This document shows positions 1,510 to 63,838 of a DNA stretch of 64,000 nucleotides, piece after piece. Where the stretch lies: NCBI GenBank assembly GCA_944385445.1, contig CALWXF010000007.1, forward strand, positions 11,976 to 75,975, written 5' to 3'. The notes below the pieces were generated by a model. It was given only the letters and a program-made list of their open reading frames with translations, did not search any database and was not told the DNA's origin. The DNA is from an uncultured Oscillospiraceae bacterium (GTDB lineage Bacteria > Bacillota > Clostridia > Oscillospirales > Oscillospiraceae). The position numbers were made by a program, and so were the translations under genes. Each line of letters starts with the position of its first letter. Within the stretch, counting starts at the first letter, position 1.

Positions 1510-1538
1510 GGGATGTTACTGTTCAATCAGGCATAACC
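1510..1538 (+). promoter_or_regulatory. RAT (ribonucleic antiterminator), BglG/SacY/LicT/GlcT type
   Basis: GGGATGTTACTGTTCAATCAGGCATAACC, 29 nt, fits GGATTGTTACTG-loop-CAGGCAAAACC with a compensatory A4-U25 pair; overlaps the terminator 5' arm. Confidence 0.85.
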
Positions 1539-7068: not shown

Positions 7069-10000
7069 TTAGCTGCGACGACGGCGCACCGTCACCACAG
7101 CCGCCAGCCCAGCGGCGGACAGTGCCAGAGCACTGAATACCAGGCCCAGCTGGGCGGCGTCCCCGGTCTGGGGCACGTCGGTCTCCGGCTTCTGGGTGGC
7201 CTCAGGATTGGTGGAGGTCTCGGGGGCGGGGGTGGCGGTCACCTCAGGGGAGGGAGTGACCTCCGGGGAGGGAGTGGGCTGCTCCGTCTCCTGCTGGGTC
7301 AGCTCGTACACCGCCACGGTGCCGGACACCTCACAGGCGGCCAGCAGCATGGGCTGCCCGGTGGGACTCTGCTGGGCGGAGAGGAAGGCCAGACCCTCGG
7401 GGGCCACATCGCCGCCAGTGACCCACTTGTCCAGCTCGCCGTCCTCGTACACCTCAGAGCCGGGGATGATGGAGCCGAAATCCCGGGAATTGATATAGTT
7501 GACGTAGGTCACAGCATCGGGGTCGGTGACGTCGTACACCATCACGCCGCCGGTGCGCTCCAGAGCCACAAAGGCGTAGGTCTTGCCGTCCACCACGCCC
7601 ACGGTGACGCTCTCCGCCTCAGGGCCCTTCTTGCCGGAGCGGTCATCCAGGGCGGCGTTGTCGTTGGAGGTGTTGAAGTAGTCGGGGAAGTAGCGGGCGG
7701 TGAGGGACTCAAAGTCGTCCCCGCTGGTGAACACCTCCTGAATGCCATCCTCGGTCACGGCGTAGAGGGTGAAGGAGCGGCCGCCGAACAGGTAGTCCTT
7801 GGAGGAATCCAGGCCGTCATAGCCCTTGGCGCTCTCGGTTTTGCTCTCCTCGCCGAAGTACACCACTTTGCCGCTGATTTCACCCTCGGCGATGTTGCCA
7901 GCGGGGGAGGCGGCGCCCTTCTTGGCCTCGTTCTCGTTGAGGTAGTCCTCCCACTCCCGGCTGTCGCCCTCGTTGGCGCACACCAGGTAGGTCACCCCGT
8001 CCACCTCATAGGCGGCGATGCCGTCGGGCATGCGGATGCCCAGCACATTCTCATAGGTCTGGGGGTTGTAGGCCTCGTCCCCCTTGTCCAGGTCCACGGG
8101 GGTGACGGAGTAGTCCTCAAAGCCGCAGGAGTAGATGCCGGTGAAGGTGCGGGTGGTGAGGTCCAGCACGGCGATGGCGTTGGCCTCCTGCAAGGTCACA
8201 TAGGCCTTGGAGCCGGACACGGCGATGTACTCCGGCTCCAGGTCGGTGGAGGGATTGGAGCCCTGCTTCAAGATGATGTGGTTGGCGGTGAGCTGGTCCC
8301 GCTGGGTGTCGAACCCGTCAAAGGTCACCACCTGGGCGGTGCCGGTGGCCACGTCCACCACGGACACCGAGCCCTTGGGGTCGATGGCGTCGGCGGTGTA
8401 GCCCATGCGGGGTTCGCCCTCGTCGGCGGAGAGGACGGTGTTGTCATCGGCGAAGGTCACCATGTCCGGCTGCACGCCCACTTCCACCAGCTTGTCCAGG
8501 GTCAGGGAGCCGTCGGCGTTGCAGGTAAACAGGGCCACCCGGCCAGCGTCGGCGTAGCCGGCGGCCTGGAGGGCGGCGGCCAGGGTGGAACCGTCGGGGG
8601 AGACGGCCACAGAGGTCATGTCGCCGTAGGCAAAGGTGGGGTCGGTCTCCTCCACCATGGCCTTGATGTCAATGTCGTTGCCGTCCAGCAGGTCCACGGT
8701 GTCCTTCTCCTCCAGGGTCTTGAGGGGAATGGCGGTGAGCAGGCCGGACTGGCCGTTAACGGCGTAGGCCCAGCCGGTGGCGGCGTTGTAGGAGACAATC
8801 TCCATGACGCCTCCGTCCACGTTGAACTCCCCGGAGGTATACCCGGCGATCTTGGTCACGTCCAGTTGGGAAGCGCCGTTCTCCTCGCCCTGGGTCTGTG
8901 CGCCGCCGTCGGTGTTCTTGGTGACGGTGAAGTGGTCAATGGGGGTGGAGTCGGGGGTCTCGCTGTCCCCGCTGAGGTTGTACACGTTCACGGTGATGGT
9001 GTTCCCCTCCACGTCAAACAGGGCGTAGCTGGGGCTGTAGTCCTGGTTCCACTCCTGGTTGCCCACCGGCAGGTTGCCTGCCAGGTAGGCCTGAGAGCCA
9101 GTCTCGCCGTTGGCCAGCACCGGGTAGTCCACGTTGTTGGCCTTGTCCACGGACTGGAAGGGGGTGTAGTACTGCATGTCGGAGGCGCAGTTTCCGGTGA
9201 GGTAGATGGTGCCGTCGGGGTCATAGAAGGTGTCCAGGGCCTCGGCGTTGCGCTGGCCGTCCTTGAGCACATAGCTGCGGGAGTACACATGGTCGTGGCC
9301 GCCCAGAACTAAGTCCACGTCGAAGTCGTCCATCAGGGCCTCGAACCCGGCGTCCACATAGTTCTCAATGTCCGAGTCGGCAGCGTGCTTGGCCACGGTC
9401 TGGGTGGACTTGTGGTGGGTGACGATGAGCCAGTCATACTGGCCCTGATACTCCTGGGTGGCGCTGGTGAGGGTGCGGCGGAAGTTCTCCACCATGGCCT
9501 CGGCCTCGGAGTTGTCCTTGGAGGCGCTGGGCACGCTGGCGTTGTCCCCGTTTTCACCCTCCAGGTCGTCGTTGCCGCCGGGGTAGGCGCCGGTGTTCAG
9601 GGTGACAAAGAGCACGTTGTTGTAGAGATAGTAGTAGTTGCCCTTTGTCTCCATCTCCCGGCGCTCGGTGAAGTCGTACTGACCGTCGGCGTTGGGGGTG
9701 ACACCGTTGCTGTTACTCTGATTGGCAATCTCCTCGGCGGTGGCCTGGATGTAGTTGCCGTGGCTCTGGCTGGTGCCGCTGTTCTGGCCCCGGAAGGTGG
9801 TCTTCACCTGCTCCAGCAGGGTGTCGGTGCCGGAAAGGCCGTCCTGGGCCACCTCCATCTGGTTGGGGAGGTTGAAGTGGTCGGCGAACATGTAGTGGCG
9901 GTCGTGGTTGCCCACGGCGGGGGCGTAGGCGATGGAGGTCATCTCCTCAGGGGCAAAGAAGGCCTCGTACTCGCTGGACTTGCCCCAGCTCTGGTCCTCC

Positions 10001-10602
10001 ACCTGGTCCCCGGCGGACACCATCAGGGTGGCCCCGGCCTGGCCCACCACCTCCATCATCTTGGCCCATCCGGTCTGGTTGGAGCCGTCGGCAGAGTTCC
10101 AGCCGTCATCGTTGTGGGACTGGTCCTCCTTGATTTGGGGGTCACTGGTGAAGGCGAAGGTGAAGTTGTCCGCCTGGGGTGTGGTGTAGGTATAGACTTG
10201 GGACCAGCTCTGGCCCCCGTCGTTGGAAATGCGGTAGTCATAGCGGGTGCCGGGCTCCAGGCCGGACACGGTGGCCTTGCACACCATCTTGCCCGTGTCG
10301 GTGTACTTGCTCTCGTCCACCTTGGTGGGGGTGGTGAGCTCGGACACCGTGGCCTCCACCACCCGGCCGTCCCCCAGGGCGATCTGGGCGGCGCTGGTGC
10401 CGTCGGGGGCGTACCAGTTGAGGTTGATGGACGAGGTGGTCTCACCGGGCTGGATGGTCAGGCTGTCCACGTCAAAGCCTGCGGTGGAACCCCACAGAGG
10501 GGTGTTGGGGGTCTCCTGGGCAGCCAGGGCCAGGGGATAGATCCCCGTGAGCAGGGCGGCGCTGAGAGCCACGCTGGCCAGCTTGGTATACCGCTTCTTC
10601 AT
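7069..10602 (-). CDS. Sortase-anchored metallophosphoesterase (purple acid phosphatase-like FN3 + calcineurin-like) fused to a choice-of-anchor I beta-propeller
   Basis: Start MKKRYTKLAS after AAGGAGG; signal peptide; motifs SDPQ, AGDQVED, GNHD, GGHDH; C-half EIVSY..GVQPDMVTF..DLEPEYI..PDGI..NEGDSR..KGPEAES..LERTGG..PEG; VPQTG anchor. Confidence 0.85.
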   Translation of the reverse strand: MKKRYTKLASVALSAALLTGIYPLALAAQETPNTPLWGSTAGFDVDSLTIQPGETTSSINLNWYAPDGTSAAQIALGDGRVVEATVSELTTPTKVDESKYTDTGKMVCKATVSGLEPGTRYDYRISNDGGQSWSQVYTYTTPQADNFTFAFTSDPQIKEDQSHNDDGWNSADGSNQTGWAKMMEVVGQAGATLMVSAGDQVEDQSWGKSSEYEAFFAPEEMTSIAYAPAVGNHDRHYMFADHFNLPNQMEVAQDGLSGTDTLLEQVKTTFRGQNSGTSQSHGNYIQATAEEIANQSNSNGVTPNADGQYDFTERREMETKGNYYYLYNNVLFVTLNTGAYPGGNDDLEGENGDNASVPSASKDNSEAEAMVENFRRTLTSATQEYQGQYDWLIVTHHKSTQTVAKHAADSDIENYVDAGFEALMDDFDVDLVLGGHDHVYSRSYVLKDGQRNAEALDTFYDPDGTIYLTGNCASDMQYYTPFQSVDKANNVDYPVLANGETGSQAYLAGNLPVGNQEWNQDYSPSYALFDVEGNTITVNVYNLSGDSETPDSTPIDHFTVTKNTDGGAQTQGEENGASQLDVTKIAGYTSGEFNVDGGVMEIVSYNAATGWAYAVNGQSGLLTAIPLKTLEEKDTVDLLDGNDIDIKAMVEETDPTFAYGDMTSVAVSPDGSTLAAALQAAGYADAGRVALFTCNADGSLTLDKLVEVGVQPDMVTFADDNTVLSADEGEPRMGYTADAIDPKGSVSVVDVATGTAQVVTFDGFDTQRDQLTANHIILKQGSNPSTDLEPEYIAVSGSKAYVTLQEANAIAVLDLTTRTFTGIYSCGFEDYSVTPVDLDKGDEAYNPQTYENVLGIRMPDGIAAYEVDGVTYLVCANEGDSREWEDYLNENEAKKGAASPAGNIAEGEISGKVVYFGEESKTESAKGYDGLDSSKDYLFGGRSFTLYAVTEDGIQEVFTSGDDFESLTARYFPDYFNTSNDNAALDDRSGKKGPEAESVTVGVVDGKTYAFVALERTGGVMVYDVTDPDAVTYVNYINSRDFGSIIPGSEVYEDGELDKWVTGGDVAPEGLAFLSAQQSPTGQPMLLAACEVSGTVAVYELTQQETEQPTPSPEVTPSPEVTATPAPETSTNPEATQKPETDVPQTGDAAQLGLVFSALALSAAGLAAVVTVRRRRS

Positions 10603-10711
10603 ATCGTTTGGTTCCTCCTTATAATATTCCAAATTCTCACGGATGGAATTATAAGGGAAGCCCACAGGCGGCGCTATCTGCCTAGCGTATGAATCGTGTA
10701 AAGAGATGGTC

Positions 10712-10742
10712 AAAAAAGGGGCCGTGCATCACGCACGGCCCC
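10712..10742 (-). terminator. mutS terminator
   Basis: GGGGCCGTGC-loop-GCACGGCCCC-TTTTTT on the minus strand. Confidence 0.85.
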
Positions 10743-35110: not shown

Positions 35111-35139
35111 TTTACAAACCCAGATAAGTGGGCTATAAT
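35111..35139 (+). promoter_or_regulatory. sigmaA promoter
   Basis: TTTACA-N17-TATAAT immediately 5' of the riboswitch. Confidence 0.85.
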
Positions 35140-35144
35140 CTCCT

Positions 35145-35203
35145 GTGGGAATGAAGTTCTCCCACGGGCAACCGAAACCGCTGTGTTCAGCTGATGACTT
35201 CTG
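35145..35203 (+). ncRNA. Fluoride riboswitch (crcB motif)
   Basis: GTGGGAATGAAGTTCTCCCAC..AAACCGCT..AGCTGATGACTTCTG; P1 GTGGGA/TCCCAC; pseudoknot GAAGTT/GACTTC; 3' end overlaps a CTTCTGTGA/TCACAGGGG hairpin. Confidence 0.9.
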
Positions 35204-35395
35204 TGATTTATTTTGGTCACAGGGGGCATTGGCTTTTTTGCTATATAGATATAGCAAAAAAGTACAATGTGCCATTTCCTCGCCCCTTTGGGGCAACCGG
35301 AAAAGATGCACGAAAACTTCATGTGCTCGTTGGGTATCCCGGTTTTGCCGTGCGCTCTGCCCATGAAGTTTTGTGGCCGCAAGGAGGAAACAAAC

Positions 35396-52108: not shown

Positions 52109-55100
52109 TTAGCTGCGGCGCTTGCGGGTCACATAGGCGGCGCCGGTGAGCAGGCTCACAGAGCCAGCCAGAGCAGCCACATACACCATCAGCTGAGCGG
52201 AGTCGCCAGTCTGAGGCACGTTCTCGGGCTTCTCGGTGGTCTGGGGCTTCTCAGAGGCCTCGGGCTTGTCGGTGGTCTCGGGAGCGCCACCGGCGGTGAG
52301 GCCGTCCATGGCAGCGGACAGAGCGGCTACGGCGTTGTCCACAGTGGCCTGATCGTCCTCAGAGAGGGTCTCGTCCGCCATCACAGCCTGAGCAGAGGCC
52401 AGAGCGGAGCGGAACACGGCCACGGACTGGGCGGTGTAGCCGGACAGGTCGATGCTCTCGGCCTGGCCAATGAGCTCTTCCAGGATGGACTTGTCGGCCT
52501 TGAAGCGCTGGGCCAAAATGGCGGTGAGCAGGTCGTCCACAGCGGTCTCCACGTCGCCCTGGAGGGCGTCGCCGTCGTCCATGACCTTCTGACCGGCGTT
52601 CAGAGCGTCCAGCAGGTCCTGCCAGCAGTCCTTGACGTACTTGCTCTCGTTGGCAACCATGGTCTCAGCCTTGGCAATGAGCACTTCCAGCATGGTCTTG
52701 TCGCCCTGCTTCAGGCCCAGAGCCCAGATGCCCTCCAGCAGGTTGTCCCAAGCGGTGTTCACCTGCTCCTGAGTGGCGTTGGGGTCGTCCAGCACGTCCT
52801 TGGCCTCGGCCATGGCCTTCTCAAAGATGTTCACGGCGGACTCGGCCACGCCGGCGGTGTCCAGGGTCAGAGCGTACTCATAGGTGGCCTGGAGCAGAGC
52901 CTTGTTGGCCTCCTGACCGGGCTGATCGGGCACACGGGCCTCCACAGCGGCGTTCATGGCCTCCACGGCGGTGTTCAGGGCCTCCTGGGTCACGGGCTCG
53001 CCCAGGGTGTTGTCGGCCAGAATGGCCTCCACAGCGGCGATGGCGTCGTTGAGGGCGGCAATGGACTCGGCGGTGTAGCCCTCCTCAGCAGCGGCGGCCT
53101 TGGCAGCGTCCACCTGAGGCTGCACGCCGTAGGTGTTCAGAGCCACGAAGCGGTCGCCCTTGATCTCGATCTCGTTGAGGTAGATGCCGTCGGTGTAGGC
53201 GATGCGGAAGGCGGTGACGCCCTTGAGCTGGTTGGCGTGGTAGACACGGGCACCGGTGTTGCTCAGGTCGGCATCATGCTCCAGCAGGGTCTCGCCATCG
53301 GCGGTGACGGCGTACACGCTCACGCCGTCCCAGGTGCCCATGGCGTTGTACAGCACCAGGTCGTTGGCCTTGGCGCTCTCGTAGACGTGGTACACCACTT
53401 CGCCCTCGCCGGTGGCCTGGACGAAGCTCATCACGTCGCGGTCATAGAGCTTGGCCTCGCCCACGCCGTTGACGGTGGCCATGGCCTTGGCCTCGGTGGA
53501 CACGCCGTGGAACTCGGCGATCTTCAGCCAGTTGGTGGAGCGGGACTCGGTGACGGTGGCACGGATGGCCTTGGCCTGGACGGTATCGAAGCTGACGGAA
53601 ATGGCACCGCCCACAAAGTCGTCGCTGTCCACGATACCCACAGAGATCCACTCGCTGTCGGCGTTCTGGTACTCCAGGTTCACCTTACCCTTCATGGCGT
53701 CACCATCGGTGGTGGTGGTGTACTCAATGCGGTTGATGCTGGTCACGGTGTTGTAGGTGACGGTGAGGTGGGTGCCCTTGGCCTGGCTGTTGAGCCAGAC
53801 GAAGGTGGTGTTGTTGTAGTCGTTGATGTTGCTGGTGGGGTGGTTGTTGGGCTCATAGATCTGAGCGCTGGAGGTGACGGAGGCGATGGACACCACCTGA
53901 GTGGCGATGGACACCTGGGTCAGGTCCACGGAAATCTCCTCAGCGGTGTTGTTCATCACACGCACATAGCGGGCCTGAGTGCCGGCGGCAAAGCCAGTCC
54001 AGGTCTTGCCGTCCAGGGAGATCTGGACGTTCAGGTCGTCCAGGCCGGACACGGAGGACAGAGCCACCAGCTGGGCCAGGTCGAACTGGACATAGGAGCC
54101 GGAGCCCAGGGTCACGGTCTCGCCGTCGGTGACGGTGAAGGTGTTGCCGGACTTAGCCATGGCCCAGCCCTCCGTGTTGGTGTCGGTGTAGACGAAGGGG
54201 TCGGAGGCGTCAGTGAAGAAGGAGCCGCCGGCCTGGGTCATGATGTAGCGGGCGAAGGGCAGGATGTACAGAGCGCCGGGGTTGGTCACATAGTTGCTGA
54301 TGGTCTGGCTGGTGCCCTGGCCCTCCAGGCTCTCCACCTTGTACTTCTCCAGGGTGTCGATGCCGTTGGAGAGGTAGATGGCGTTCATCAGGTGATCGAA
54401 GCGCCGGCTCTCCTCGCCATACATGGCCTGGATGCAGTCGATGATGATCTGGCTCATGTCATTGAGGCGGTACACCCAGGGGCGAATCTCCTCTTCCAGG
54501 TTCACCAGCTTGGAATCATCGCTGTCCTTGAGGGTGAGGATGAGCTGGCAGGAATCCACGATCTTCTGCATCTCCTCCAGCACGGCCGGATAGTTGGAGC
54601 TGTCCGACTTGTAGGCGTTGAAGATGGAGTTGATGTTGGTGTGGTCCTGGTTCTTGGCAGCGTGGCTGGCAAACACACGCAGGGCCTCCTGCATGGCGGG
54701 GTCATCGGTGTAGGAGGCAAAGGACTCCTCCCAGTTGCTCTGGACATCGAAGTTGGCGGTGTTCCAGGTGTAGTCGGCCACACCGTACAGGGCCACCTTG
54801 GAGGCCTCAGCCTGGTTCATGGGGTTGGACAGGACGCCCAGACTGGCGGTGACGTCCAGGTCGGTGGCATACACCGAGTCGATGCGGTTCATCAGCAGCT
54901 GGTCGTCAATGTTGTCGTTGACGGGGTAGTTCCACCACATGACGGGCTTCTTACCGGTGTACTGCTGGATCTTCAGCAGGTCGGAGTTGCGGATGGGGGA
55001 CCACACGCCGGAGCCGGTCATCATCATGATGACGTTGTTGTCCTGGTTCTGCTCCCGGAAGGCGCCCAGGTTGGTCTCCAGCTGAGAGGAGGAGCCAAAG

Positions 55101-56914
55101 TTCAGGGCGTAGAAGCTGGGCACATAGTAGGTGCCGGCCACATGATCGGCGGGGTTCTCGGAGCCGTTGTAGGTGTCCTCCAGGCGGCGCTGAATCTCAG
55201 CCATCATGTAGGCCTGGTTCTCGGAGCCACGCAGAGCCACACCGGTGTCGATGTCGTCCACGAACACGCCGAACTGACGCACGCCCAGATCGTACATGTG
55301 GGAGAACTTCTCCATGATGTCGTCAATGCCCTGCTCCACGCTGTCACGGCTGGTGAAGTTGATGCCGTTTTGCATGGCGGGGTGGATGGACCAGGCAAAG
55401 GAGATGTTGTTCTCGGCGGCAGCGGCGGTGATGGTGCGCATGTCGTCCTGGGTCATCATGCCGTAGAAGCGCTGCTCGTCGGTGATCTCGGTGGGATACT
55501 CATCCCGCCAGTTGCCCAGGTGATAGGGGTCGCCCTTGGGGCCGTAGACGAAGGTGTTCATCTTGTTGTCTTCCATGTACTCGAACAGGGAGATGATGTC
55601 CTCCACAGAGTACACCTTGCCGTAGAAGCCCTCGACGATGCCACGGTACTGCATGTTGGCATAGTCCTCGATGGTGGCGCAGGTCAGCTGCTGGCCGGCC
55701 ACGGTGTCCATGGCGTCATCCAGGGTGGCCAGGCCGTAGTACACAGCGTCGTCGTCCTCACCCAGGATGGTCACACGGCCATTGGAGTTGATGTCCACAA
55801 AGTGGGCGTCATACTTGGTCTCGCTGGCCACAAACAGGTCGTCGGAGTAGCCGGTGGTGTTGGTGTCCACGTTCTCGGTAGAGCCGTGCAACCCTAACGC
55901 CAGGGTGCTCTCCTCATAGTTCTCGGTGACGGTGTAGGACACGCCCTGCTTGCCCATGATCTCCTGCACCCGGCCCTTGGTGACATCGGTGATGCCGGAC
56001 TCATAGTAGACCTTGACGTTGTCAAAGTCGATGAGGTTGTACTGCATCTCCAGCTTCTGGGGGGTGGGGTTGAGATCATAGGTGTTGTCCAGATCAGTCT
56101 GGGACAGAATGGTCACGGGAATCTCCACGTCGGCGCTGCTGCCCAGGTAGGAGACGGTGGCGGTGAGGGTGGCCTGGGTGGTGGTCTCAGGCAGGGTCAC
56201 CTTCAGCATACCGTACTCCACGGTGAGGTAGGGAGAGTCGCTCTTCCAGGTGACGGTGGCGCCGTAGTCGGTGCTCTCCACCAGGGACACGTCCCGGCTC
56301 AGAGCGTCCCACTTCTGGGCGTTCTCCAGCTGGGTCTTGGCCTGGTTGAGCACAAACTCCCAGGTGTTGTTGTACACTTCCATCTCGTAGATGGACACGC
56401 AGGTCCAGATGTCAGGGAAGTTCTCGGTGACATACACCCGGACATAGCGGGCCGTGACCTCATCAAAGGTGAGGGTGCGGGCCTCCTCGGGCTGGCCGTC
56501 GGTGACGTTGGCCACGTCGGTCCACTCATTGCCGTCGTCAGAGACCTGGACCTTGTAGGCCTTGCCGCCGGACTTCTCCCAGAACAGACGGACGCAGTTG
56601 AAGGTGGTGGGCTCGCCGAAGTCCAGGCGCAGCCACTGGGGGTTGCTCTCACTGAGGGTGCCGCTGGACCAGCGGGTGTCCATGTTGCCGTCGTTGGCCT
56701 TCTCCTGGGTGAAGTTAGAGGTCTCGTTGGCGGACGAGGCGGCGGTGGCGGTGAGGGCCAGGTTGGGGCTGGTCGCCTCATTGGCAAGGGTGGCAGCGGA
56801 GTTGGTGATCTCGTCGGCCTGGGTCTGAGGCAGGGCAGCGGCATAGCTGACGGTGGACAGACACATGGCACACACGGTGACCAGAGCGCCGACTTTCTTG
56901 GTAATCTTGCGCAT
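52109..56914 (-). CDS. Multimodular sortase-anchored GH84 beta-N-acetylglucosaminidase (NagH/NagJ-like)
   Basis: Start MRKITKK after AGGAGG; signal peptide; CBM32; GH20b-like domain; GH84 motifs RGIVEGFYG, YGPKGDPYH, FVDDI, WWNYPVND; further CBM32-like and FIVAR modules; VPQTG. Confidence 0.9.
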   Translation of the reverse strand: MRKITKKVGALVTVCAMCLSTVSYAAALPQTQADEITNSAATLANEATSPNLALTATAASSANETSNFTQEKANDGNMDTRWSSGTLSESNPQWLRLDFGEPTTFNCVRLFWEKSGGKAYKVQVSDDGNEWTDVANVTDGQPEEARTLTFDEVTARYVRVYVTENFPDIWTCVSIYEMEVYNNTWEFVLNQAKTQLENAQKWDALSRDVSLVESTDYGATVTWKSDSPYLTVEYGMLKVTLPETTTQATLTATVSYLGSSADVEIPVTILSQTDLDNTYDLNPTPQKLEMQYNLIDFDNVKVYYESGITDVTKGRVQEIMGKQGVSYTVTENYEESTLALGLHGSTENVDTNTTGYSDDLFVASETKYDAHFVDINSNGRVTILGEDDDAVYYGLATLDDAMDTVAGQQLTCATIEDYANMQYRGIVEGFYGKVYSVEDIISLFEYMEDNKMNTFVYGPKGDPYHLGNWRDEYPTEITDEQRFYGMMTQDDMRTITAAAAENNISFAWSIHPAMQNGINFTSRDSVEQGIDDIMEKFSHMYDLGVRQFGVFVDDIDTGVALRGSENQAYMMAEIQRRLEDTYNGSENPADHVAGTYYVPSFYALNFGSSSQLETNLGAFREQNQDNNVIMMMTGSGVWSPIRNSDLLKIQQYTGKKPVMWWNYPVNDNIDDQLLMNRIDSVYATDLDVTASLGVLSNPMNQAEASKVALYGVADYTWNTANFDVQSNWEESFASYTDDPAMQEALRVFASHAAKNQDHTNINSIFNAYKSDSSNYPAVLEEMQKIVDSCQLILTLKDSDDSKLVNLEEEIRPWVYRLNDMSQIIIDCIQAMYGEESRRFDHLMNAIYLSNGIDTLEKYKVESLEGQGTSQTISNYVTNPGALYILPFARYIMTQAGGSFFTDASDPFVYTDTNTEGWAMAKSGNTFTVTDGETVTLGSGSYVQFDLAQLVALSSVSGLDDLNVQISLDGKTWTGFAAGTQARYVRVMNNTAEEISVDLTQVSIATQVVSIASVTSSAQIYEPNNHPTSNINDYNNTTFVWLNSQAKGTHLTVTYNTVTSINRIEYTTTTDGDAMKGKVNLEYQNADSEWISVGIVDSDDFVGGAISVSFDTVQAKAIRATVTESRSTNWLKIAEFHGVSTEAKAMATVNGVGEAKLYDRDVMSFVQATGEGEVVYHVYESAKANDLVLYNAMGTWDGVSVYAVTADGETLLEHDADLSNTGARVYHANQLKGVTAFRIAYTDGIYLNEIEIKGDRFVALNTYGVQPQVDAAKAAAAEEGYTAESIAALNDAIAAVEAILADNTLGEPVTQEALNTAVEAMNAAVEARVPDQPGQEANKALLQATYEYALTLDTAGVAESAVNIFEKAMAEAKDVLDDPNATQEQVNTAWDNLLEGIWALGLKQGDKTMLEVLIAKAETMVANESKYVKDCWQDLLDALNAGQKVMDDGDALQGDVETAVDDLLTAILAQRFKADKSILEELIGQAESIDLSGYTAQSVAVFRSALASAQAVMADETLSEDDQATVDNAVAALSAAMDGLTAGGAPETTDKPEASEKPQTTEKPENVPQTGDSAQLMVYVAALAGSVSLLTGAAYVTRKRRS

Positions 56915-57030
56915 GGTTGATGTTCCTCCTATTCTCCTGAAATCGTGTATGGGACAATTTAGGGGATGAATCACCTCCTGGTTGGACAAGAAGAGGGGCG
57001 TGGGGAACTCCCACGGAAGAGGTACCGACG

Positions 57031-57097
57031 AAAAAGACCAGACGACACCAAAGGGGCCCATATCACAGCGATACGCCCCCCTTTCGGTACATCTGGT
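57031..57097 (-). terminator. Leader terminator overlapped by the RAT
   Basis: Minus strand ACCAGATG-TACC-GAAAGGGG..CCCCTTT-GGTG-T-CGTCTGGT-CTTTTT. Confidence 0.8.
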
Positions 57098-57119
57098 TTT
57101 GCCCATACGGTAACAATCC
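57095..57119 (-). promoter_or_regulatory. RAT (ribonucleic antiterminator) with short apical stem
   Basis: GGATTGTTACCGTATGGGCAAAACC keeps both canonical ends GGATTGTTAC and GGCAAAACC; 3' end overlaps the terminator. Confidence 0.85.
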
Positions 57120-57141
57120 TTCTTGTTGTTCACTTGCCACC

Positions 57142-57170
57142 AGTATACCACTGGAGATGGAAAAAGTAAA
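57142..57170 (-). promoter_or_regulatory. sigmaA promoter of the GH84 gene
   Basis: TTTACT-N17-TATACT with extended -10 TG. Confidence 0.75.
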
Positions 57171-57226
57171 CAAAAGAAGGATTGTTATATCTCATGAAAC
57201 TGTATGAATTATATTGTCCATTCTGT

Positions 57227-58057
57227 CTATACCAGGCCCAGCTTGGCAAATACCACCTGGGCCAGCTCGTGGCGGGGCAGAGGCCGGTCCAAGAAGTACT
57301 CCAGGGCGAAAATGGCCTGATAGATGAGCATGGGCAGGCCGTTGGCGGTCTTGAGACCCCGCTTTTGGGCCTGGTGCAGCAATTGGGTGCAGGCGGGATG
57401 GTAGATGAGGTCCATCACCCCGGCGCCACGGGGCAGGGCGTCCAGGAAGGAGAAGTCCTCAAACTGGTGGGGGCAGTCGTCCATGCCCAGGTTGGTGCAG
57501 TTGATGACCAGCTGGGCCTGGGAGCACACCTGGGAGAGGGTGCCGGGGTCAAAGCCCGCAGGGGTGAGAGTGCCGGAGGAATCCAGCTGGCACAGCTGCT
57601 GGGCCTTGGACAGGGTGCGGTTGCACACCCAGATGCGCTCTACCTGGGTCTGGGCCAGGCGCAGGGCCACCGCCCGGGCAGCGCCCCCCGCCCCCAGCAG
57701 CACCACCTGCCGGGCGGGCCATAGTCCCATATGCACCAGGGACTCCAGACAGCCGTCCCCGTCGGTGTTGTGGCCGATCCACTTCCCGTCCCGGCGGCAG
57801 ACGGTGTTCACCGCCCCGGATAGCTCCACTTCCTCCCCCAGCTGGTCCATCAGGGGCACCAGGTCCTCCTTGTGGGGCATGGTGGCGTTGAAGCCGGTGA
57901 CTCCGTGGGTCTCGGCAAAGGCCAGGTACTGGGGCACCTCCCCCTTTTTCACCAGGTGGGGGGTGTAGGGGATGTCCAATCCCAGGTAATCCAGCATGGT
58001 GGTCTGGATGATGGGGGATTTGGAGTGGAGGACGGGATCACCGATGACTTGCAGCAT
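57227..58057 (-). CDS. aroE: Shikimate dehydrogenase
   Basis: IGDPVLHSKSP; NATMPHK; GAVNT; GHNTDG; LLGAGGAARA; DLIYHP; GLPMLIYQA. Confidence 0.93.
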   Translation of the reverse strand: MLQVIGDPVLHSKSPIIQTTMLDYLGLDIPYTPHLVKKGEVPQYLAFAETHGVTGFNATMPHKEDLVPLMDQLGEEVELSGAVNTVCRRDGKWIGHNTDGDGCLESLVHMGLWPARQVVLLGAGGAARAVALRLAQTQVERIWVCNRTLSKAQQLCQLDSSGTLTPAGFDPGTLSQVCSQAQLVINCTNLGMDDCPHQFEDFSFLDALPRGAGVMDLIYHPACTQLLHQAQKRGLKTANGLPMLIYQAIFALEYFLDRPLPRHELAQVVFAKLGLV

Positions 58058-58059
58058 GT

Positions 58060-58998
58060 TCACTGTCCCCCTTTGAGGAAGAAGTCCATGGCCCGCAGGT
58101 AGCCCTGGAGGCCCAGGCCGTAGATCTGGCCCACACACCCCGAGGCGGTGACGGACACCGAGCGGAAGGGCTCCCGGGTGTGGATGTTGCCGATGAGCAC
58201 CTCGAAGGCGGGGATATTCACCGCCTGGAGGGCGTCCAGAATGGCGTAGCTGTAGTGGGCGTAGGCGGCGGGGTTGATGATGATGGCGTCGTAGACCCCG
58301 TCGGCGGCCTGAATCTGGTCCACAATGTCCCCCTCGTGGTTGGACTGGTAGCAGGTGGCGGTGGAGTTATGTATCTTGGCATACTCCTCGATCATGGTAC
58401 ACAGAGAGGCGTAGTTTCCGTGGTTTTCCCGGCCGTACAGCTCCGCATCCCCCTTGCCCAGCAGGTTGAGGTTGGGGCCGTTGATGATGAGAAATTTCTT
58501 GCCCACCTCGGAGATCTTCTCCAGAATTTCCGCAACGGTGGCCTCCGGTGAGGAAAAGTCCTGGATGATGACATCGGCGGCGGACAGGTACAGGGGCAGG
58601 CGGTGGTGGTGGCGCTCCACAAAGGCGTTGTGCCCTTCCTGGGCCAGAGGACGGCTCTCTGTGTCCAGGCTGGCGCAGATTTCGTCAATGGGGCGGTCCA
58701 GGAACACCAGAATGCCGTTGCGGCGCAGGGAGGTCACGTTTTTTCTCGACAGCACCGCCCCGCCGCCGGTGGCGATGACCAAACCCTCCTGGCTGCTCAG
58801 CTGCTCCAGCACCTGGCTCTCCAGGGAGCGGAAGCCCCGCTCCCCGTCCTGGGCGAAAATCTGGGAGATGGTGCGCCCGGTGGTCCCCTCCATCAGCTCG
58901 TCGCAGTCCACGAAGGGGCGGCCCAGCTGCTGGGCCAGCATATGTCCGGCGGTGGTTTTTCCACAGCCCATCATACCAATGAGGATAATATTCTTCAT
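58060..58998 (-). CDS. aroK: Shikimate kinase fused to a degenerate type II 3-dehydroquinate dehydratase domain
   Basis: IGMMGCGKTT; FR..E; ATGGG; then NGPNLNLLG, QSNHEG, INPAAYAHYS. Confidence 0.9.
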   Translation of the reverse strand: MKNIILIGMMGCGKTTAGHMLAQQLGRPFVDCDELMEGTTGRTISQIFAQDGERGFRSLESQVLEQLSSQEGLVIATGGGAVLSRKNVTSLRRNGILVFLDRPIDEICASLDTESRPLAQEGHNAFVERHHHRLPLYLSAADVIIQDFSSPEATVAEILEKISEVGKKFLIINGPNLNLLGKGDAELYGRENHGNYASLCTMIEEYAKIHNSTATCYQSNHEGDIVDQIQAADGVYDAIIINPAAYAHYSYAILDALQAVNIPAFEVLIGNIHTREPFRSVSVTASGCVGQIYGLGLQGYLRAMDFFLKGGQ

Positions 58999-60158
58999 GC
59001 TTCTTCCTCCAAATTCGACACGAAGTTGCCAAGTACCCGGAAGTCTCCGGTGGTCTGGGACAGCTCATGGAGCACATCGGCGATCTCCGGGGTGTTCAGG
59101 TTCCCGGTGAACTCCAAGAAGAACATGTACTCCCAGCTGTGCTGGGGCAGGGGACGGGATTCCAGCTTCACCATGTTCAGGCCGTGGACGGCGAAGATGG
59201 TGAGAATTTCATGGAGGGAGCCCGCCTCATGGGGGAGGAGAAAGACGGTGCTGATCTTGTCAGCGCCCTCCCGCAGCTCCACCTGGGGAGAGACCACCAC
59301 GAAGCGGGTGGTGTTGTGGGGGTTGTCGTTGGTGGGACCGGCCAGGATGTTCAGCCCGTAGATCTGAGCGGCCCGGGCCGAGCACAGGGCGGCTTTGGTG
59401 AGGTCTCCGCTCTGGGCCACCATCTGGGCCGAGCCGGCGGTGTCCGCCTGGGGCACCTGCTTCCAATGGGGGTGAGCGTTCAAAAACTTCTCACTTTGAA
59501 ACAGTCCCTGTTCGTGGGAGTACACATGGGTGATGGTGTCCAGGGTGGCCCCGGGCAGGGCCATGAGACAGTGGTCCACCTTCACCGTGGTCTCTCCCAC
59601 CAGGAAGAAATCGTATTCCGACAGCAGATCGTAGATTTGGCGGATGGCGCCCGTGGAGCTGTTCTCAATGGGGAGCACCGCATAGTCCGCCCGGCCCTCC
59701 TTCAGGGCCAGAAAGGTGTCCTCAAACTGGGGCAGCCCGGTGGCCTGGACCCCTTCGCCGAAGAAGTTGATGCAGGCCTGCTCGCTGTACGCCCCAGGCT
59801 CCCCCTGGAACACCACCCGGGGGTGCTGGATGGGCTCCCGCATCCGGGACAGGGCCTGGACAAACCGGGGAACGCCGGGGTTGTCCGCCCGCTCTCTCGT
59901 CAGGTCCCGCTGTTGGCGGCGGGAGATGGACATCATGGTCTGAAAGAGGGTGGTGACGCCGGGGCGCAGGTCCCCCTCCACCAGCTGGGCCTTGTCCTGG
60001 AGCACCTGGCGCTCCCGCACTGCGTCCAGCACCGGGATGCCCCGCTCCAGCTTGTACTGGCCCACCTGGGCGGTGACCGCCATGCGCTGGCGGAACAGCT
60101 CTACCATCTGTCGGTCGATGCGGTCGATTTCCGCTCGATACTGCTGCAATTCATCCAT
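58995..60158 (-). CDS. pheA: Chorismate mutase / prephenate dehydratase
   Basis: R.EIDRIDRQ; FQGEPGAYSE; LPIENSSTG; SHEQG..Q; NTTRF; ACT domain KLESRP. Confidence 0.93.
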   Translation of the reverse strand: MDELQQYRAEIDRIDRQMVELFRQRMAVTAQVGQYKLERGIPVLDAVRERQVLQDKAQLVEGDLRPGVTTLFQTMMSISRRQQRDLTRERADNPGVPRFVQALSRMREPIQHPRVVFQGEPGAYSEQACINFFGEGVQATGLPQFEDTFLALKEGRADYAVLPIENSSTGAIRQIYDLLSEYDFFLVGETTVKVDHCLMALPGATLDTITHVYSHEQGLFQSEKFLNAHPHWKQVPQADTAGSAQMVAQSGDLTKAALCSARAAQIYGLNILAGPTNDNPHNTTRFVVVSPQVELREGADKISTVFLLPHEAGSLHEILTIFAVHGLNMVKLESRPLPQHSWEYMFFLEFTGNLNTPEIADVLHELSQTTGDFRVLGNFVSNLEEEA

Positions 60159-60185
60159 GGGAATGGCCTCCAAACTTCGAAATCA

Positions 60186-60426
60186 GCCTCCCTTGTGTAA
60201 AGGGAGGTGGCCCGGCGTTAGCCGGGTCGGAGGGATTGTCTGTCACCTGGCCTAGGTCAACCCCTCAGTCTCGTCGGTGCGGACTGTGTATCTCTCGCCT
60301 CGCCCCTGAGAGGCGGGGCAAGTCTCGCTCACGCCGTCGCACCTCCTCTCCCCACCGAACCCGCTTGCGCTGGGCTTCGGCGGGGACCCCGTAACGGGCT
60401 GCCAGCTCCCCTTGCACAGGGGAGCC
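60186..60426. repeat. Family B doublet; the B2 loop holds a ~126-nt two-hairpin insert (60271-60396)
   Basis: B1 60186-60240; B2 arms CCTCAGTC and GGCTGCCAGCTCCCC are split by the insert. Confidence 0.85.
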
Positions 60427-60494
60427 TTTTGTCGAGCCCTCCAGTTTGTGTCCAATGTTTCACGCTTCACTTCTCTCGCCGTCCCGGCCAAAAA

Positions 60495-61541
60495 TCAAAT
60501 TCCCAGCAGCTGGCAGGCGGCCAGGGCTGCGGCGGCCTCAATGACAGGCACCGCCCGGGGGACCACACAGGGGTCGTGCCGCCCCTGGAGCTCCAGCTGG
60601 GCATTTTCCATGCGGCTCATGTCAATGGTAAATTGGGTGCGGGCAATGGAGGGGGTGGGGCGCATGGTCACCTCGAACACCAGGGGCATGCCGTTGGTGA
60701 TGCCGCCGTTGATGCCTCCGGCGCAGTTTTGCTCCGCTCCCACGTTGCCGTTCTCGTCCACATACAGGGGGTCGTTGGCCTCGGAGCCCCGCATGAGGGA
60801 GAAGGCGGTGCCGGCGCCGAAGGCCACCGCCTTCACCGCCGGGACGGCAAACAGGTACTGGGAGAAGATGCCCTCGGCGTTCTCCCCAAAGTCGGGGGAG
60901 CCGTATCCGGCGGGGAGTCCGAACACCCCGCACTCAATGGAGCCGCCCACGGAGTCTTGCTCTTCCTTGGCCTCCAAAATGGCCTCCTGCATCTCGGCGC
61001 CCTTCTCATCGTTGAGCACCGGGAAGTCCTTGTCCGCCACCCCTTTCAGGGTGTCCCAGTCCTCCAGGGCCTCGTCGTTGACCCCGTAGATGGAGCTGAT
61101 GTGGGCCCCCACGGTGATGCCACGCTGGGCCAGAATCTGCTTGGCGATGGCCCCGGCGAACACCAGGGGGGCGGTAAGCCGCCCGGAGAAGTGGCCGCCG
61201 CCTCGGTAGTCATTGAAGCCCTGGTAGCGGACGTGGGCGGGGTAGTCGGCGTGGCCGGGCCGGGCCAGGTCACGGGTTTTGCTGTAATCGGCCGAGCGGG
61301 TGTCGGTGTTAGGAATCATGGCGCACAGGGGGGACCCGGTGGTCTTGCCCTCAAACACCCCGGAGAGCACCTGCACCTGGTCGGCCTCCTTGCGGGCGGT
61401 GACCAGGGGAGACTTGCCGGGGGCCCGGCGGGCCATGTCCTTTTCAATGGCGGCCCAGTCCAGCTCCAGCCCAGCGGGCACGCCTGTGAGGGTGACGCCA
61501 ATGGCGGGGCCGTGGGACTCGCCGAAAATGGTATAGTTCAT
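60495..61541 (-). CDS. aroC: Chorismate synthase
   Basis: FGESHG; RPGHAD; GGHFSGRLT; GGINGGITNG; GRHDPC. Confidence 0.96.
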   Translation of the reverse strand: MNYTIFGESHGPAIGVTLTGVPAGLELDWAAIEKDMARRAPGKSPLVTARKEADQVQVLSGVFEGKTTGSPLCAMIPNTDTRSADYSKTRDLARPGHADYPAHVRYQGFNDYRGGGHFSGRLTAPLVFAGAIAKQILAQRGITVGAHISSIYGVNDEALEDWDTLKGVADKDFPVLNDEKGAEMQEAILEAKEEQDSVGGSIECGVFGLPAGYGSPDFGENAEGIFSQYLFAVPAVKAVAFGAGTAFSLMRGSEANDPLYVDENGNVGAEQNCAGGINGGITNGMPLVFEVTMRPTPSIARTQFTIDMSRMENAQLELQGRHDPCVVPRAVPVIEAAAALAACQLLGI

Positions 61542-62764
61542 AGGGTTTCCTCGCTTTTTACAATGTTTCCCCCCAGCTTCTCATAGACCTCCCAGAAGTC
61601 GGGAAAGGATTTGGCCACACACTGAGCGCCCGTCAGGGTGATGGGGGCCTCACACCGGGTGGCGGCCATGGCAGCCATCATGGCGATGCGGTGGTCGTTG
61701 TGGCAGGGGACGGTGACGCCCCCGGCGAACTGGGCCACACCTTGGATGGTGAGCCCCTCAGAGAGCTCCTCCACCTGGGCACCCAGTTCATTGAGCACCT
61801 GGGAGGTGGTGGCCAGTCGGTCGCTCTCCTTGATGCGCAGCCGGGCCGCCCCCACAATGTGGCAAGTCTTGCCCTCCATACCAGCGGCCAGAGCCGCCAG
61901 CGGGGGCACCAGGTCGGGGCACTGGCTCACGTCCAGGGTGACAGTCTGTTCCGGTCCGGTGAGCTGCTCGTAAAAGGAGACGATGCGCCGGTCTCCCTGG
62001 GGGGAGTGGGGGTCCAGACCCTGGATGTCCAGGTCATTGCCCAGCCCCAGCCCGGCATAGAAAAAGCCCGCCTGGGACCAGTCCGCCTCCACGCTGTCCC
62101 GGATGGGGGAGTAGCGCTGGGAGCCGGGGATGGTATACCCGTCCAGGGTAATGCCCGCCTGGTGGAGGGCCTGCCGGGTCATGGCCACATAGTCCTCCGA
62201 CTCCAGGGGGGAGGTGAGGGTGATGGTGGAGGTGCCCTCCACCAGGGGCAGGGCGTACAGCAGCCCGGTGACGAACTGGCTGGATACGTTGCCGGGGAGG
62301 GGATAGTCTCCCGGGGTGAGCTGTCCCTGGACGGTGAGCACCCCATCTTCCAGGGTGTAGGAGATGCCTTTGGCATCGAAGAGATCAAAGTAGGGGGTTT
62401 GGGGCCGCTCCATCAGCCGCCCCTGTCCGGTAAAGACCCCGCCGCCTGCCACCGCCAGGGCGATGGGGATGAGAAAGCGGAGGGTGGAGCCGGACTCCCC
62501 GCAGTCCAGGCGGGGAGGGGAGGGGGTGGGGCGGTTCATGGTGAGGCCCTGCACCGTCAGGGTGGACCCGGACCAGGTGAAGGAGGCCCCCAGGGCCTCC
62601 ATGCACCGGATGGTGGCCAGAATGTCCTGGGATGGGGCCACATGGGTGAGCACGCTCTCCCCAGAGGCCAGGGCGGCGGCGATGATGAGCCGGTGGGCCT
62701 GGCTTTTGGAGGGGGGAGGCGTGACGGGGCCGTGAAGCTTGGCGGGGGTGATGGTGACGTTCAT
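61538..62764 (-). CDS. aroA: 3-phosphoshikimate 1-carboxyvinyltransferase
   Basis: PPSKSQAHR; GESGSTLRF; SSQFVTGLL; RIKESDRL; DHRIAM; KSFPDFW. Confidence 0.96.
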   Translation of the reverse strand: MNVTITPAKLHGPVTPPPSKSQAHRLIIAAALASGESVLTHVAPSQDILATIRCMEALGASFTWSGSTLTVQGLTMNRPTPSPPRLDCGESGSTLRFLIPIALAVAGGGVFTGQGRLMERPQTPYFDLFDAKGISYTLEDGVLTVQGQLTPGDYPLPGNVSSQFVTGLLYALPLVEGTSTITLTSPLESEDYVAMTRQALHQAGITLDGYTIPGSQRYSPIRDSVEADWSQAGFFYAGLGLGNDLDIQGLDPHSPQGDRRIVSFYEQLTGPEQTVTLDVSQCPDLVPPLAALAAGMEGKTCHIVGAARLRIKESDRLATTSQVLNELGAQVEELSEGLTIQGVAQFAGGVTVPCHNDHRIAMMAAMAATRCEAPITLTGAQCVAKSFPDFWEVYEKLGGNIVKSEETL

Positions 62765-62776
62765 AGCAATACCTCG

Positions 62777-63838
62777 TTACAGCATCTCCAGCAGCTGCTG
62801 TTTCAAAATGGGGTAGGCCAGGGCGTGGCCGGGGCGGTCCAGGAGGATGAGGGAGAGGGAGGAGCCCGCCCCCTTCTTGTCCAGGCCGATGGCGGCGGCG
62901 TAGTCCGCCTGGGAACAGGGAATGGCGGTGGGCAGGCCGAAGGCCTCCACCAGTTGGGCGATGTCCGGGGCCAGGTGGGCGGGGGTGAGACCCAGGGCGG
63001 TGCCCAGCTGGGCGGCCCGCACCATCCCGGCGGCCACGGCCTGGCCGTGGGTGTAGGTGGTGTAGTGGCCCGCCAGCTCGTAGGCGTGACCCAGGGTGTG
63101 GCCGAAGTTGAGGATCATCCGCCGCCCGGTGTCCAGCTCGTCCTCCGCCACCACCTCCGCCTTGATGCGGCAGCAGGTGTACAGCACTGGTTCGATGTTT
63201 GCCATGATGGCGGAGCGGGAGGGGTTCTGGCCCAGAAACTCCAAAAAGTCCTGGTCGGCGATGCAGCCGTACTTGATGACCTCCGCCATGCCGTCGGCAA
63301 AGGTCTCGTGGGGCAGGGTGCCCAGCACCTCCGGGTCCATGAGCACCAGCCGGGGCTGATAGAAGGTCCCCGCCAGGTTTTTTCCCTCGGGCAGGTCGAT
63401 GGCCACCTTGCCTCCCACCGAGGAGTCCACCTGGGCCAGGAGGGTGGTGGGGATTTGGATGAGGGCCACCCCCCGCAGGATGGTGGCGGCGGCAAAGCCC
63501 GCCAGGTCCCCCACCACGCCGCCCCCCAGGGCCACCACGCAGTCGGTGCGGGTGAGGCCGAATTGGGCAAAGCCGCTCCACAGACGGGCCAGCTGCTGGG
63601 CGCACTTGCTCTCCTCCCCGGCGGGGACCACAAAGGTCTCCACCTGGAACCCGGCCCGGGTGAGGCTGTGGGACACGGTTTCGCCGTACAGCGGGGCCAC
63701 ATGGGAGTCGGTGACCAGGGCCACCTTCCGGGCCTGGGGAACCACCGAGCAGATGTAGCCCCCGGCCTGGGGGAGCAGGCCGGGCCTTATGAGAATGTCA
63801 TACTCCCGTCCGGGGAGGGGGACTGTGAGGGTTTGCAT
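62777..63838 (-). CDS. aroB: 3-dehydroquinate synthase
   Basis: GEESK; GGGVVGDLAGF; PTTLLAQVDSSVGGK; LNFGHTLGHA; HGQAV. Confidence 0.96.
   Translation of the reverse strand: MQTLTVPLPGREYDILIRPGLLPQAGGYICSVVPQARKVALVTDSHVAPLYGETVSHSLTRAGFQVETFVVPAGEESKCAQQLARLWSGFAQFGLTRTDCVVALGGGVVGDLAGFAAATILRGVALIQIPTTLLAQVDSSVGGKVAIDLPEGKNLAGTFYQPRLVLMDPEVLGTLPHETFADGMAEVIKYGCIADQDFLEFLGQNPSRSAIMANIEPVLYTCCRIKAEVVAEDELDTGRRMILNFGHTLGHAYELAGHYTTYTHGQAVAAGMVRAAQLGTALGLTPAHLAPDIAQLVEAFGLPTAIPCSQADYAAAIGLDKKGAGSSLSLILLDRPGHALAYPILKQQLLEML

Follow-up and report, generated by a model that had tools for sequence, protein, structure and literature searches.

The window analyzed here, a 64,000-nt stretch of a contig from an uncultured Oscillospiraceae bacterium, carries the gene GH84a and its leader downstream of a group of aro genes (Table 1). 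Pfam analysis of the GH84a product indicated F5/8-type C, GH20b-like, GH84 NAGidase (PF07555, 282 bits) and FIVAR domains, and its termini showed a signal peptide at the N-end and a VPQTGD-TM-RKRRS sorting signal at the C-end. The open reading frame is intact and begins with the ATG at 56914, placed 117 nt past the terminator of the leader and behind an AGGAGG sequence. The longest open reading frame would start with the GTG at 57151, and this start was rejected because it runs through the leader by chance and the orthologues begin at the methionine encoded by the ATG at 56914. The aro genes, aroB, aroA, aroC, pheA, aroK/aroQ and aroE, lie upstream on the same strand and end at 57227, and no minus-strand terminator was found in 57171-57226, between aroE and the GH84a promoter. 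At the other end of the window, a sister leader with the element RAT1 precedes an anchored GH20 gene.

Table 1. Location and description of the GH84a leader, its neighbors, and the related RAT leaders of the same genome.
Feature	Location	Strand	Description and basis
RAT1	1510-1538	+	Leader of the anchored GH20 gene (CDS 1687-6588; GH20 by Pfam); GGGAUGUUACUGUUCAAUCAGGCAUAACC; 45.7 bits
GH84a	52109-56914	-	1601 aa; secreted, sortase-type-anchored GH84 β-N-acetylglucosaminidase; Pfam and termini
Rest of the predicted 5' UTR	56915-57030	-	RBS AGGAGG at 56930-56925, read from the sequence
Intrinsic terminator	57031-57100	-	Hairpin of about 23 bp; U5 tract at 57035-57031
25-nt LicT-type RAT (mini-RAT)	57095-57119	-	GGATTGTTACCGTATGGGCAAAACC = GGAUUGUUACCGUAUGGGCAAAACC; 41.7 bits on model R1
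Inverted-repeat 3' arm	57111-57135	-	Would be the first ~25 nt of RNA started at the GH84a promoter; contains RAT nt 1-9
Promoter, sigma-70-type	57142-57170	-	Consensus scan; TTTACT, 17-nt spacer, TGgTATACT, extended -10
Putative anti-RAT 5' arm	57164-57187	-	Upstream of and across the -35 box
aroE-like gene	57227-58138	-	Shikimate dehydrogenase by Pfam; last gene of the co-directional aro operon
C6 operon			Own-leader RAT GGATTGTTACCGCATAGGCGGGCAAAACC (29 nt); antiterminator, EIIA(Glc), EI, HPr, NagE-type EIICB
C1 operon			Own-leader RAT GACTTGTGACTGGTCAAGCAGGCAAGATC; antiterminator, glucose-family EIICBA
C19 operon			Own-leader RAT GGATTGTAACTGGTAAGGCAGGCAAGACC; antiterminator, beta-glucoside EIIBCA, GH1 (classical bgl operon)
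GH84b	Contig C1		1981 aa, GH84, VPPTGD anchor; short RAT upstream
C9 site			RAT identical to the GH84a RAT; gene is a deletion remnant

All the elements that a sequence-only reading had placed in the leader were found at their positions on the minus strand between 57170 and 57031, and inspection of the sequence and its alignment bore out that the order of promoter, RAT and terminator is the same as in the GH20 leader. The promoter consists of a -35 box TTTACT (57170-57165) and a -10 box TATACT (57147-57142) preceded by TG, and the consensus scan gave two promoter-like sites in the region versus 0.2 expected. The predicted transcription start is near 57135, about 15 nt before the RAT. Two orthologous leaders, L096 and L097, keep this promoter, and a third one, L098, has it in an altered form. 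The RAT contains the pairs G1-C25, G2-C24, U4-A21, U5-A20, G6-C19, C10-G17 and C11-G16, with the apical loop GUAU and the internal loops A3/A22A23 and U7U8A9/G18. The RAT signature is thus present in this leader, i.e., the conserved sequence and both asymmetric internal loops (A3 vs A26/A27 and U7-U8-A9 vs G22 in the 29-nt numbering), and the RAT alignment agreed with the earlier observation that both loops are retained. The element departs from the usual RAT dimensions, 29-30 nt in all and 3-4 bp in the apical stem: it has, as had been read before, 25 nt and a 2-bp apical stem, closed by a tetraloop. Nucleotides 20-25 of the RAT (AA.ACC) are the foot of the terminator 5' arm, an overlap of 5-6 nt, and since the 3' part of the RAT is shared with that arm, the two folds are mutually exclusive; the orthologous leaders show this overlap too. 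The minimum free energy of the leader was -43.7 kcal/mol (z = -3.9), and that of the terminator alone -35 kcal/mol. When the RAT fold was forced, the terminator was predicted to lose the pairs beside the U-tract, with the long upper hairpin persisting. The canonical fold of the mini-RAT had a predicted energy of -0.2 kcal/mol, versus -5.9 kcal/mol for the 29-nt C6 RAT, and given this near-zero predicted stability the short element might bind an antiterminator weakly or not at all.

The first reading had also argued that two independent instances of this layout made chance unlikely. A chance origin of the RAT was indeed rejected: the core pattern TGTTAC-N6-10-GGCAWAACC had two matches in the window, the GH84a RAT and 1514-1538, versus 0.00 expected from 100 shuffles, and a covariance model of the RATs of the genome (R1, built from the flanked RAT alignment A2 and a hand-written structure) returned exactly seven sites in 2.15 Mb, with 40.6-47.5 bits, the next best hit having 15 bits. 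The count had to be revised, as it is seven RATs and three CAT-PRD antiterminators rather than two instances. The seven RATs are all intergenic and each is followed by an overlapping terminator; three head CAT-PRD antiterminator operons, which would be autoregulated, and four are found before surface-enzyme genes, namely GH84a, GH84b, GH20 and a deletion remnant. Each of the three genes for CAT_RBD+PRD+PRD antiterminators of the genome, on contigs C1, C6 and C19, lies behind its own RAT and terminator, and four PRD histidines (H102, H161, H209 and H271) are invariant in the three proteins. In the remnant, located at the C9 site, the start of a signal peptide and a FIVAR/VPQTGD tail are fused in different frames. 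In a relative (G179), an intact discoidin-domain open reading frame is kept up to the contig end. No intact orthologue of the C9-type gene was found in five genomes searched, where the matches detected, at 32-39%, were all to the discoidin domains that other enzymes carry. Two other GH84 paralogues of the genome (C14:1384 and C1:440602) have no RAT before them, which indicates that not every GH84 gene belongs to the regulon. With the genome 91% complete, absences are provisional. The Rfam gathering search of the window reported the fluoride riboswitch only, and a permissive Rfam search of the GH84a leader found no RAT family and gave spurious matches to miRNA-precursor hairpins, which arose from the long inverted repeat described below.

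Footprinting of the GH84 and GH20 leaders, which had been proposed as a check, was possible with the GH84a leader in four species, the GH84b leader in seven, and RAT1 in five, i.e., with orthologues from four other species. The RAT was invariant in the GH84a and GH84b leaders, except for the tetraloop (GUAU, GCAA, GCAU, GUGA or GAAA) and for one diverged species (G162), where the GH84b RAT has the changes A3G and C11U, and the GH84a RAT the change G17A, which leaves C10 opposite A17 and the stem weakened. The terminators of the GH84a and GH84b leaders keep their pairing via compensatory and wobble changes; in the four orthologous GH84a leaders, one pair is compensatory and several changes affect one side of the stem. 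In a genus sample of 41 genomes, GH84 was found in seven, RATs in the same seven plus one weak match, and CAT domains in the same seven plus one other; since these genomes are kin, the co-occurrence is a description and not a test. Nine out of ten short RATs in this sample precede GH84a- or GH84b-type genes. Among 150 other genomes of the family that were searched, RATs were present in only four.

Reviews put the RAT at about 30 nt (PMC12591593), and no description of a 25-nt RAT was found in the literature on antiterminators with GH84 and PTS or on RAT in Paenibacillus. A scan for the exact pattern GGATTGTTAC-N6-GGCAAAACC over one genome per GTDB species returned 81 sites, 76 of them with an overlapping terminator, and all these 76 can pair at positions 11-16. 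The pair was U-A in 54, C-G in 11, G-C in two and G-U in two of the 69 sites scored automatically; the seven further terminators, from Paenibacillus and with a mismatch near the base, were read by eye, and their RATs all have UGAAAA and a U-A pair. The remaining five sites had no terminator, four of them also lacked the pair, and about four chance matches were estimated. When only the 17 distinct mini-RATs were considered, the pair 11-16 was CG in nine, UA in five, and GC, GU and UG in one each, and it was never unpaired, which represents covariation. Most 25-nt sites were found in Paenibacillus and Saccharibacillus, before antiterminator genes, beta-glucoside EIIBCA genes and one gene for a secreted protein, and in the antiterminator tree the short form was used by at least five clades. 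The recurrence at 76 terminator-linked sites and the covariation of the pair 11-16 indicate that the 25-nt length of the GH84a RAT is a size variant, not a defect; along with the use by several antiterminator clades, they make the short RAT a common natural variant and the length of the apical stem not an apparent determinant of specificity. Moreover, the 76 conserved, terminator-linked copies, some of them in the leaders of antiterminator genes themselves, suggest that two apical base pairs are enough for a working RAT. The 25-nt form would then define a minimal RNA for the CAT domain, of help for RAT annotation, as length-fixed RAT patterns miss it, and for small synthetic antitermination switches.

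The comparison of RATs points to one of the three antiterminators. The C6 RAT reads GGATTGTTAC-CGCATAGGCG-GGCAAAACC, and those of GH84a, GH84b and the C9 site read GGATTGTTAC-CGNNNG-GGCAAAACC, that is, the three 25-nt RATs are identical to the C6 RAT at 19/19 non-apical positions. In the RATs of C1 and C19, the middle loop is UGA or UAA and not UUA, and position 26 is G and not A, along with several loop and stem differences. In B. subtilis, A26 and a purine at position 3 define the LicT targets, and the U:A pair above the lower loop aids LicT binding (PMC1635312); by these specificity rules, the C6 protein is the expected partner of the GH84 RATs. We consider it quite probable that the C6 antiterminator is the regulator of the short GH84 RATs, an assignment that rests on the similarity of the RATs and on the comparison of cassettes. 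The first reading had offered one regulon or two paralogous antiterminators as options, and the former is now favored for GH84a, GH84b and the C9 remnant; it does not cover GH20. The difference between the lower stems of the mini-RAT (A3, U4-A) and RAT1 (G3, A4-U) that this reading had pointed out is real, both in the sequence and in the alignment. In B. subtilis, A or G at position 3 is neutral for LicT, whose specificity depends more on A26 and on the U:A pair above the lower loop (PMC1635312). G3 alone, as a mark of a second specificity class, was rejected on these B. subtilis data and on the variation of position 3 among orthologues, where one GH20 leader has A and one GH84b leader has G; because LicT specificity is left unchanged by A or G at this position, G3 alone is no argument for a second regulator. 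The lower stem of RAT1 has, besides G3, a flipped pair A4-U25, and the flip is kept in five species, one of them with G26. RAT1 exactly matches the own-leader RAT of none of the three antiterminators, and the A4-U25 flip still might point to a second regulator.

The sugar is suggested by the genes that accompany the C6 antiterminator, and GlcNAc is probably the inducing signal, with slightly less confidence than for the regulator. The C6 EIICB scored 554.3 bits on the GlcNAc-specific family TIGR01998, whose cut-off is 553.2, a margin of only 1 bit, and the best NCBIfam match of the antiterminator was LicT, with 267 bits, under the cut-off of 300. Behind this antiterminator lies the one EI gene that the genome was found to contain. 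The same gene order was found in another genus of the family (G063), with a 29-nt RAT, and cassettes of this type are present in a Catonella MAG and in a MAG labelled 'Spirochaetales', whose own leaders carry a 25-nt RAT of the same sequence and whose EIICB is NagE-type, with 615 bits. Therefore, antiterminators linked to this cassette appear to use both RAT lengths. In the antiterminator tree, the C6-type proteins group with that of the 'Spirochaetales' MAG cassette with a support of 98/92, a grouping that is weak because of the long branches.

Collectively, we propose, with a probability of about 0.72, that the GH84a leader is a PTS-controlled attenuator of the BglG/SacY/LicT type, likely run by the C6 antiterminator with a GlcNAc signal. 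Transcription would begin near 57135 and stop by default about 100 nt further on, at the intrinsic terminator. When an active CAT-PRD1-PRD2 antiterminator is available, we infer that its CAT dimer would sit on both internal loops of the 25-nt RAT and keep RAT nucleotides 20-25 in the RAT helix, so that the terminator would lack the bottom pairs by the U-tract and the polymerase would read through into GH84. The transport of GlcNAc would drain phosphate from EIIB/EIIA, leaving PRD1 unphosphorylated and the antiterminator active. The wall-anchored enzymes that release GlcNAc would then be made once this sugar already arrives, which would constitute a feed-forward loop.

The mechanism itself is the classical one of BglG/SacY/LicT. 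Outside the apical stem, the GH84a RAT is identical to the RAT of B. subtilis bglP (GGAUUGUUAC...GGCAAAACC). The LicT system (bglP and licS) shares with GH84a the determinants of LicT recognition, A3, A26 and the U:A pair above the lower loop (PMC1635312), the overlap between RAT and intrinsic terminator in a 5' UTR, here a predicted one, and a CAT-PRD1-PRD2 regulator with four conserved histidines; its target licS encodes a secreted glycanase and is unlinked to the regulator, as GH84a is here. The differences are the RAT, which has 29-30 nt and an apical stem of 3-4 bp in the LicT system and 25 nt, 2 bp and about zero stability here, the permease, which belongs to a beta-glucoside PTS there and is GlcNAc-type here, and the wall-anchored GH84 targets. 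Through RAT/terminator leaders, NagY of E. faecalis regulates its own operon, nagY-nagE, as well as hylA, the gene for an LPXTG-anchored lyase (PMC9981650). The C6 antiterminator would resemble NagY in its regulatory logic, both being BglG-family antiterminators tied to a GlcNAc PTS permease, autoregulated by a RAT and with an unlinked, anchored, host-glycan-degrading target: the C6 gene shares its locus with a GlcNAc-type permease, and the unlinked, anchored GH84a and GH84b carry a C6-like RAT. The NagY RAT (TTTCATGTGACTAGATAATACTAGGCATGGAA; PMC12502629) differs from the LicT-type RAT found here in the lower stem and loops; in addition, the C6 operon includes EIIA, EI and HPr, and the targets are GH84 hydrolases instead of a PL8 lyase. 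GlcT and glcT-ptsGHI of B. subtilis likewise place an antiterminator beside PTS genes, including ptsH and ptsI, and a RAT/terminator controls the PTS; in the GlcT RAT, triple base pairings give the lower loop a structure of its own (PMC1635312), the RAT described here is LicT-type, and the C6 RAT precedes the antiterminator gene itself. SacY, which acts on sacB in B. subtilis, is also a trans-acting antiterminator of an unlinked exported enzyme that works on the polymer or precursor of the sensed sugar, with a RAT that has U3 and G26, another sugar and another enzyme class. The new aspects are the anchored GH84 targets in gut Clostridia, the widespread class of 25-nt RATs, and a possible anti-RAT insulator. 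PTS antitermination control would thus be extended to surface enzymes of the GH84 and GH20 families in Enterenecus, a genus of gut Clostridia known from chickens and humans, offering a testable model of when these bacteria harvest GlcNAc from host glycans.

The attenuator might be real and respond to another controller, either the C1 (glucose-family) or the C19 (beta-glucoside) antiterminator, or be subject to cross-talk, in which case the sugar would not be GlcNAc. The genome has three paralogues, the LicT, SacT and SacY proteins of B. subtilis share targets when their RATs are similar (PMC1635312), the GH20 RAT1 exactly equals the own RAT of no antiterminator, and a relative (G186) has a GH84b mini-RAT, yet its 86%-complete assembly yielded no CAT gene other than one of the C1 type. 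We consider this explanation unlikely, because the own RATs of C1 and C19 have another middle loop than the mini-RAT (UGA or UAA vs UUA) and another base at position 26 (G vs A), whereas the C6 RAT is identical to it at 19/19 non-apical bases, and the orthologous GlcNAc cassettes of other lineages carry the same RAT sequence in its mini form.

Within the C6-controlled attenuator that we favor, the near-zero stability of the short RAT may have a function. Since the mini-RAT is predicted not to fold alone (ΔG about 0), read-through would be fully set by the concentration of active antiterminator, and an element that exists only when bound suggests a low leak and a need for more active regulator than the autoregulatory leader. 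The stable 29-nt RAT of the regulator/PTS operon would respond first, and the GH84 mini-RATs after the regulator has built up; in a comparable way, NagY binding to the hylA leader is weaker than to its own leader (PMC9981650). It is a tentative possibility, clearly less probable than the attenuator itself, that mini-RATs are a distinct class giving regulator-dose-dependent read-through, and thereby a two-tier regulon, with an anti-RAT hairpin making the terminator dual-purpose.

This hairpin is suggested by a perfect 14-nt inverted repeat, 57174-57187 / 57111-57124, which lengthens to 24 pairs when the read-through RNA 57226-57025 is folded (-79.5 kcal/mol, z = -6.8). The 14-nt core was unchanged in four species despite the drift of the flanks. 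The repeat (57164-57187 / 57111-57135) brackets the -35/-10 region and its core is conserved, so it could act on DNA instead, as an operator or a cruciform that represses the promoter, with the RAT being part of a larger element. This is improbable, as arms placed 49 nt apart are atypical of a dimeric repressor, one of them is the RAT 5' half plus leader, a sequence already explained, and no such repeat was found in the aligned stretches of the GH84b and other RAT leaders; moreover, a DNA-level reading is compatible with antitermination. An even slimmer chance is given to the terminator being mainly the 3' end of the aro operon, with a RAT-like sequence that is a decayed relic, constitutive termination, and GH84a expressed otherwise or poorly: no other terminator lies between the aroE end (57227) and the GH84a leader, the intrinsic stability of the mini-RAT is about zero, and the neighboring C9 RAT precedes a deletion remnant, but a good promoter sits between aroE and the RAT, the RAT is invariant over 4-7 species in spite of a drifting apical loop and flanks, the 25-nt form is found on 76 terminator-linked leaders, including those of antiterminators themselves, with a pair 11-16 that covaries, and the GH84a open reading frame is intact over 1601 aa.

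If the leader is a PTS-controlled attenuator, as we propose, the terminator could still serve both transcripts. The anti-RAT 5' arm covers the -35 box and the sequence just upstream of it, and would thus be transcribed only in RNA that reads through from the aro operon. In this read-through RNA, the hairpin would sequester the RAT and the terminator would form with or without active antiterminator, whereas RNA started at the GH84a promoter would lack the 5' arm, leaving the RAT free. The same terminator may therefore be an unconditional end for the aro transcript and a conditional attenuator for that of GH84a, and, if functional, the anti-RAT hairpin would be a simple insulation of a conditional terminator against upstream read-through.

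The C6 operon is a cassette led by a RAT (the RNA site of CAT-PRD antiterminators) and is the putative source of the regulator acting on the GH84 leaders. The gaps between its antiterminator, EIIA, EI and HPr genes measured 6-32 nt. The sole copy of the EI gene (ptsI) found in the source genome, which is 91% complete, sits downstream of the C6 RAT and terminator, and a second HPr gene copy was located on contig C18. With the only EI gene found lying behind this leader, the entire PTS of the organism would hinge on leader read-through. As judged from this gene order, such dependence implies that the C6 antiterminator would be active in its unphosphorylated form, or else that termination would be leaky.

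Locations of the features considered (G, genomes; C, contigs; L, extracted loci; G000, source genome)
Feature	Location	Strand	Description
C6 operon segment	G000 C6:19787-24865 (= L012:5788-10865)		Antiterminator, EIIA, EI, HPr, in order
C9 leader and remnant	G000 C9:1143-1641 (L011)		RAT identical to the GH84a RAT, with terminator
GH84 paralogue	G000 C14:1384-2259		Open frame of 1634 aa
GH84 paralogue	G000 C1:440602-441561		Open frame of 1517 aa
aro operon	Window 57227-63838	Minus	Co-directional aromatic amino-acid biosynthesis genes
Third-type CAT-domain genes	G080:C121:859-1014; G162:C10:16258-16413; G152:C80:15754-15897
Mini-RAT-like sequence	L088:3607-3631		Uncultured Mediterraneibacter MAG; apical part UUUUAA
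Large secreted protein	Window 7069-10713	Minus	Purple-acid-phosphatase/metallophosphoesterase and choice-of-anchor I domains
Fluoride riboswitch	Window 35138-35210	Plus	RF01734

No RAT was found upstream of the GH84 paralogues on C14 and C1, and by sequence the antitermination network takes in just two of the four GH84 genes of the genome. Downstream of the C9 RAT and terminator, only a deletion remnant was observed, in which a signal-peptide start (MRKNLKRMAL) and a FIVAR/VPQTGD anchor tail are fused in different reading frames. The same leader, its RAT carrying G2A, occurs in the related genome G179 (L103), where it is followed by an intact secreted discoidin-domain ORF that extends past the contig end.

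In the related genomes G080, G162 and G152, which carry a third type of CAT-domain gene, the covariance model built from the RATs of the source genome (R1) detected no RAT for these genes. At the mini-RAT-like sequence of L088, a secreted-protein gene begins 38 nt downstream, and inspection by eye found no convincing terminator; the match may have arisen by chance, or the sequence may be a RAT serving something other than antitermination.

The GH84a promoter is flanked by a conserved inverted repeat (window 57111-57187), perfect over 14 nt and reaching 24 bp with one bulge. Because of this repeat, Rfam miRNA-precursor matches were obtained at 57113-57185, and these were discarded as spurious. 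The genes of the aro operon encode DHQ synthase, EPSP synthase, chorismate synthase, chorismate mutase/prephenate dehydratase, a shikimate kinase-dehydroquinase fusion and shikimate dehydrogenase. The operon lacks its own terminator ahead of the GH84a leader. The repeat would mask RAT nucleotides 1-9 solely in RNA reading through from this operon.

Elsewhere in the window, no RAT was found ahead of the purple-acid-phosphatase/metallophosphoesterase gene, which adjoins the anchored GH20 gene. The fluoride riboswitch scored 43.7 bits against a gathering score of 34.
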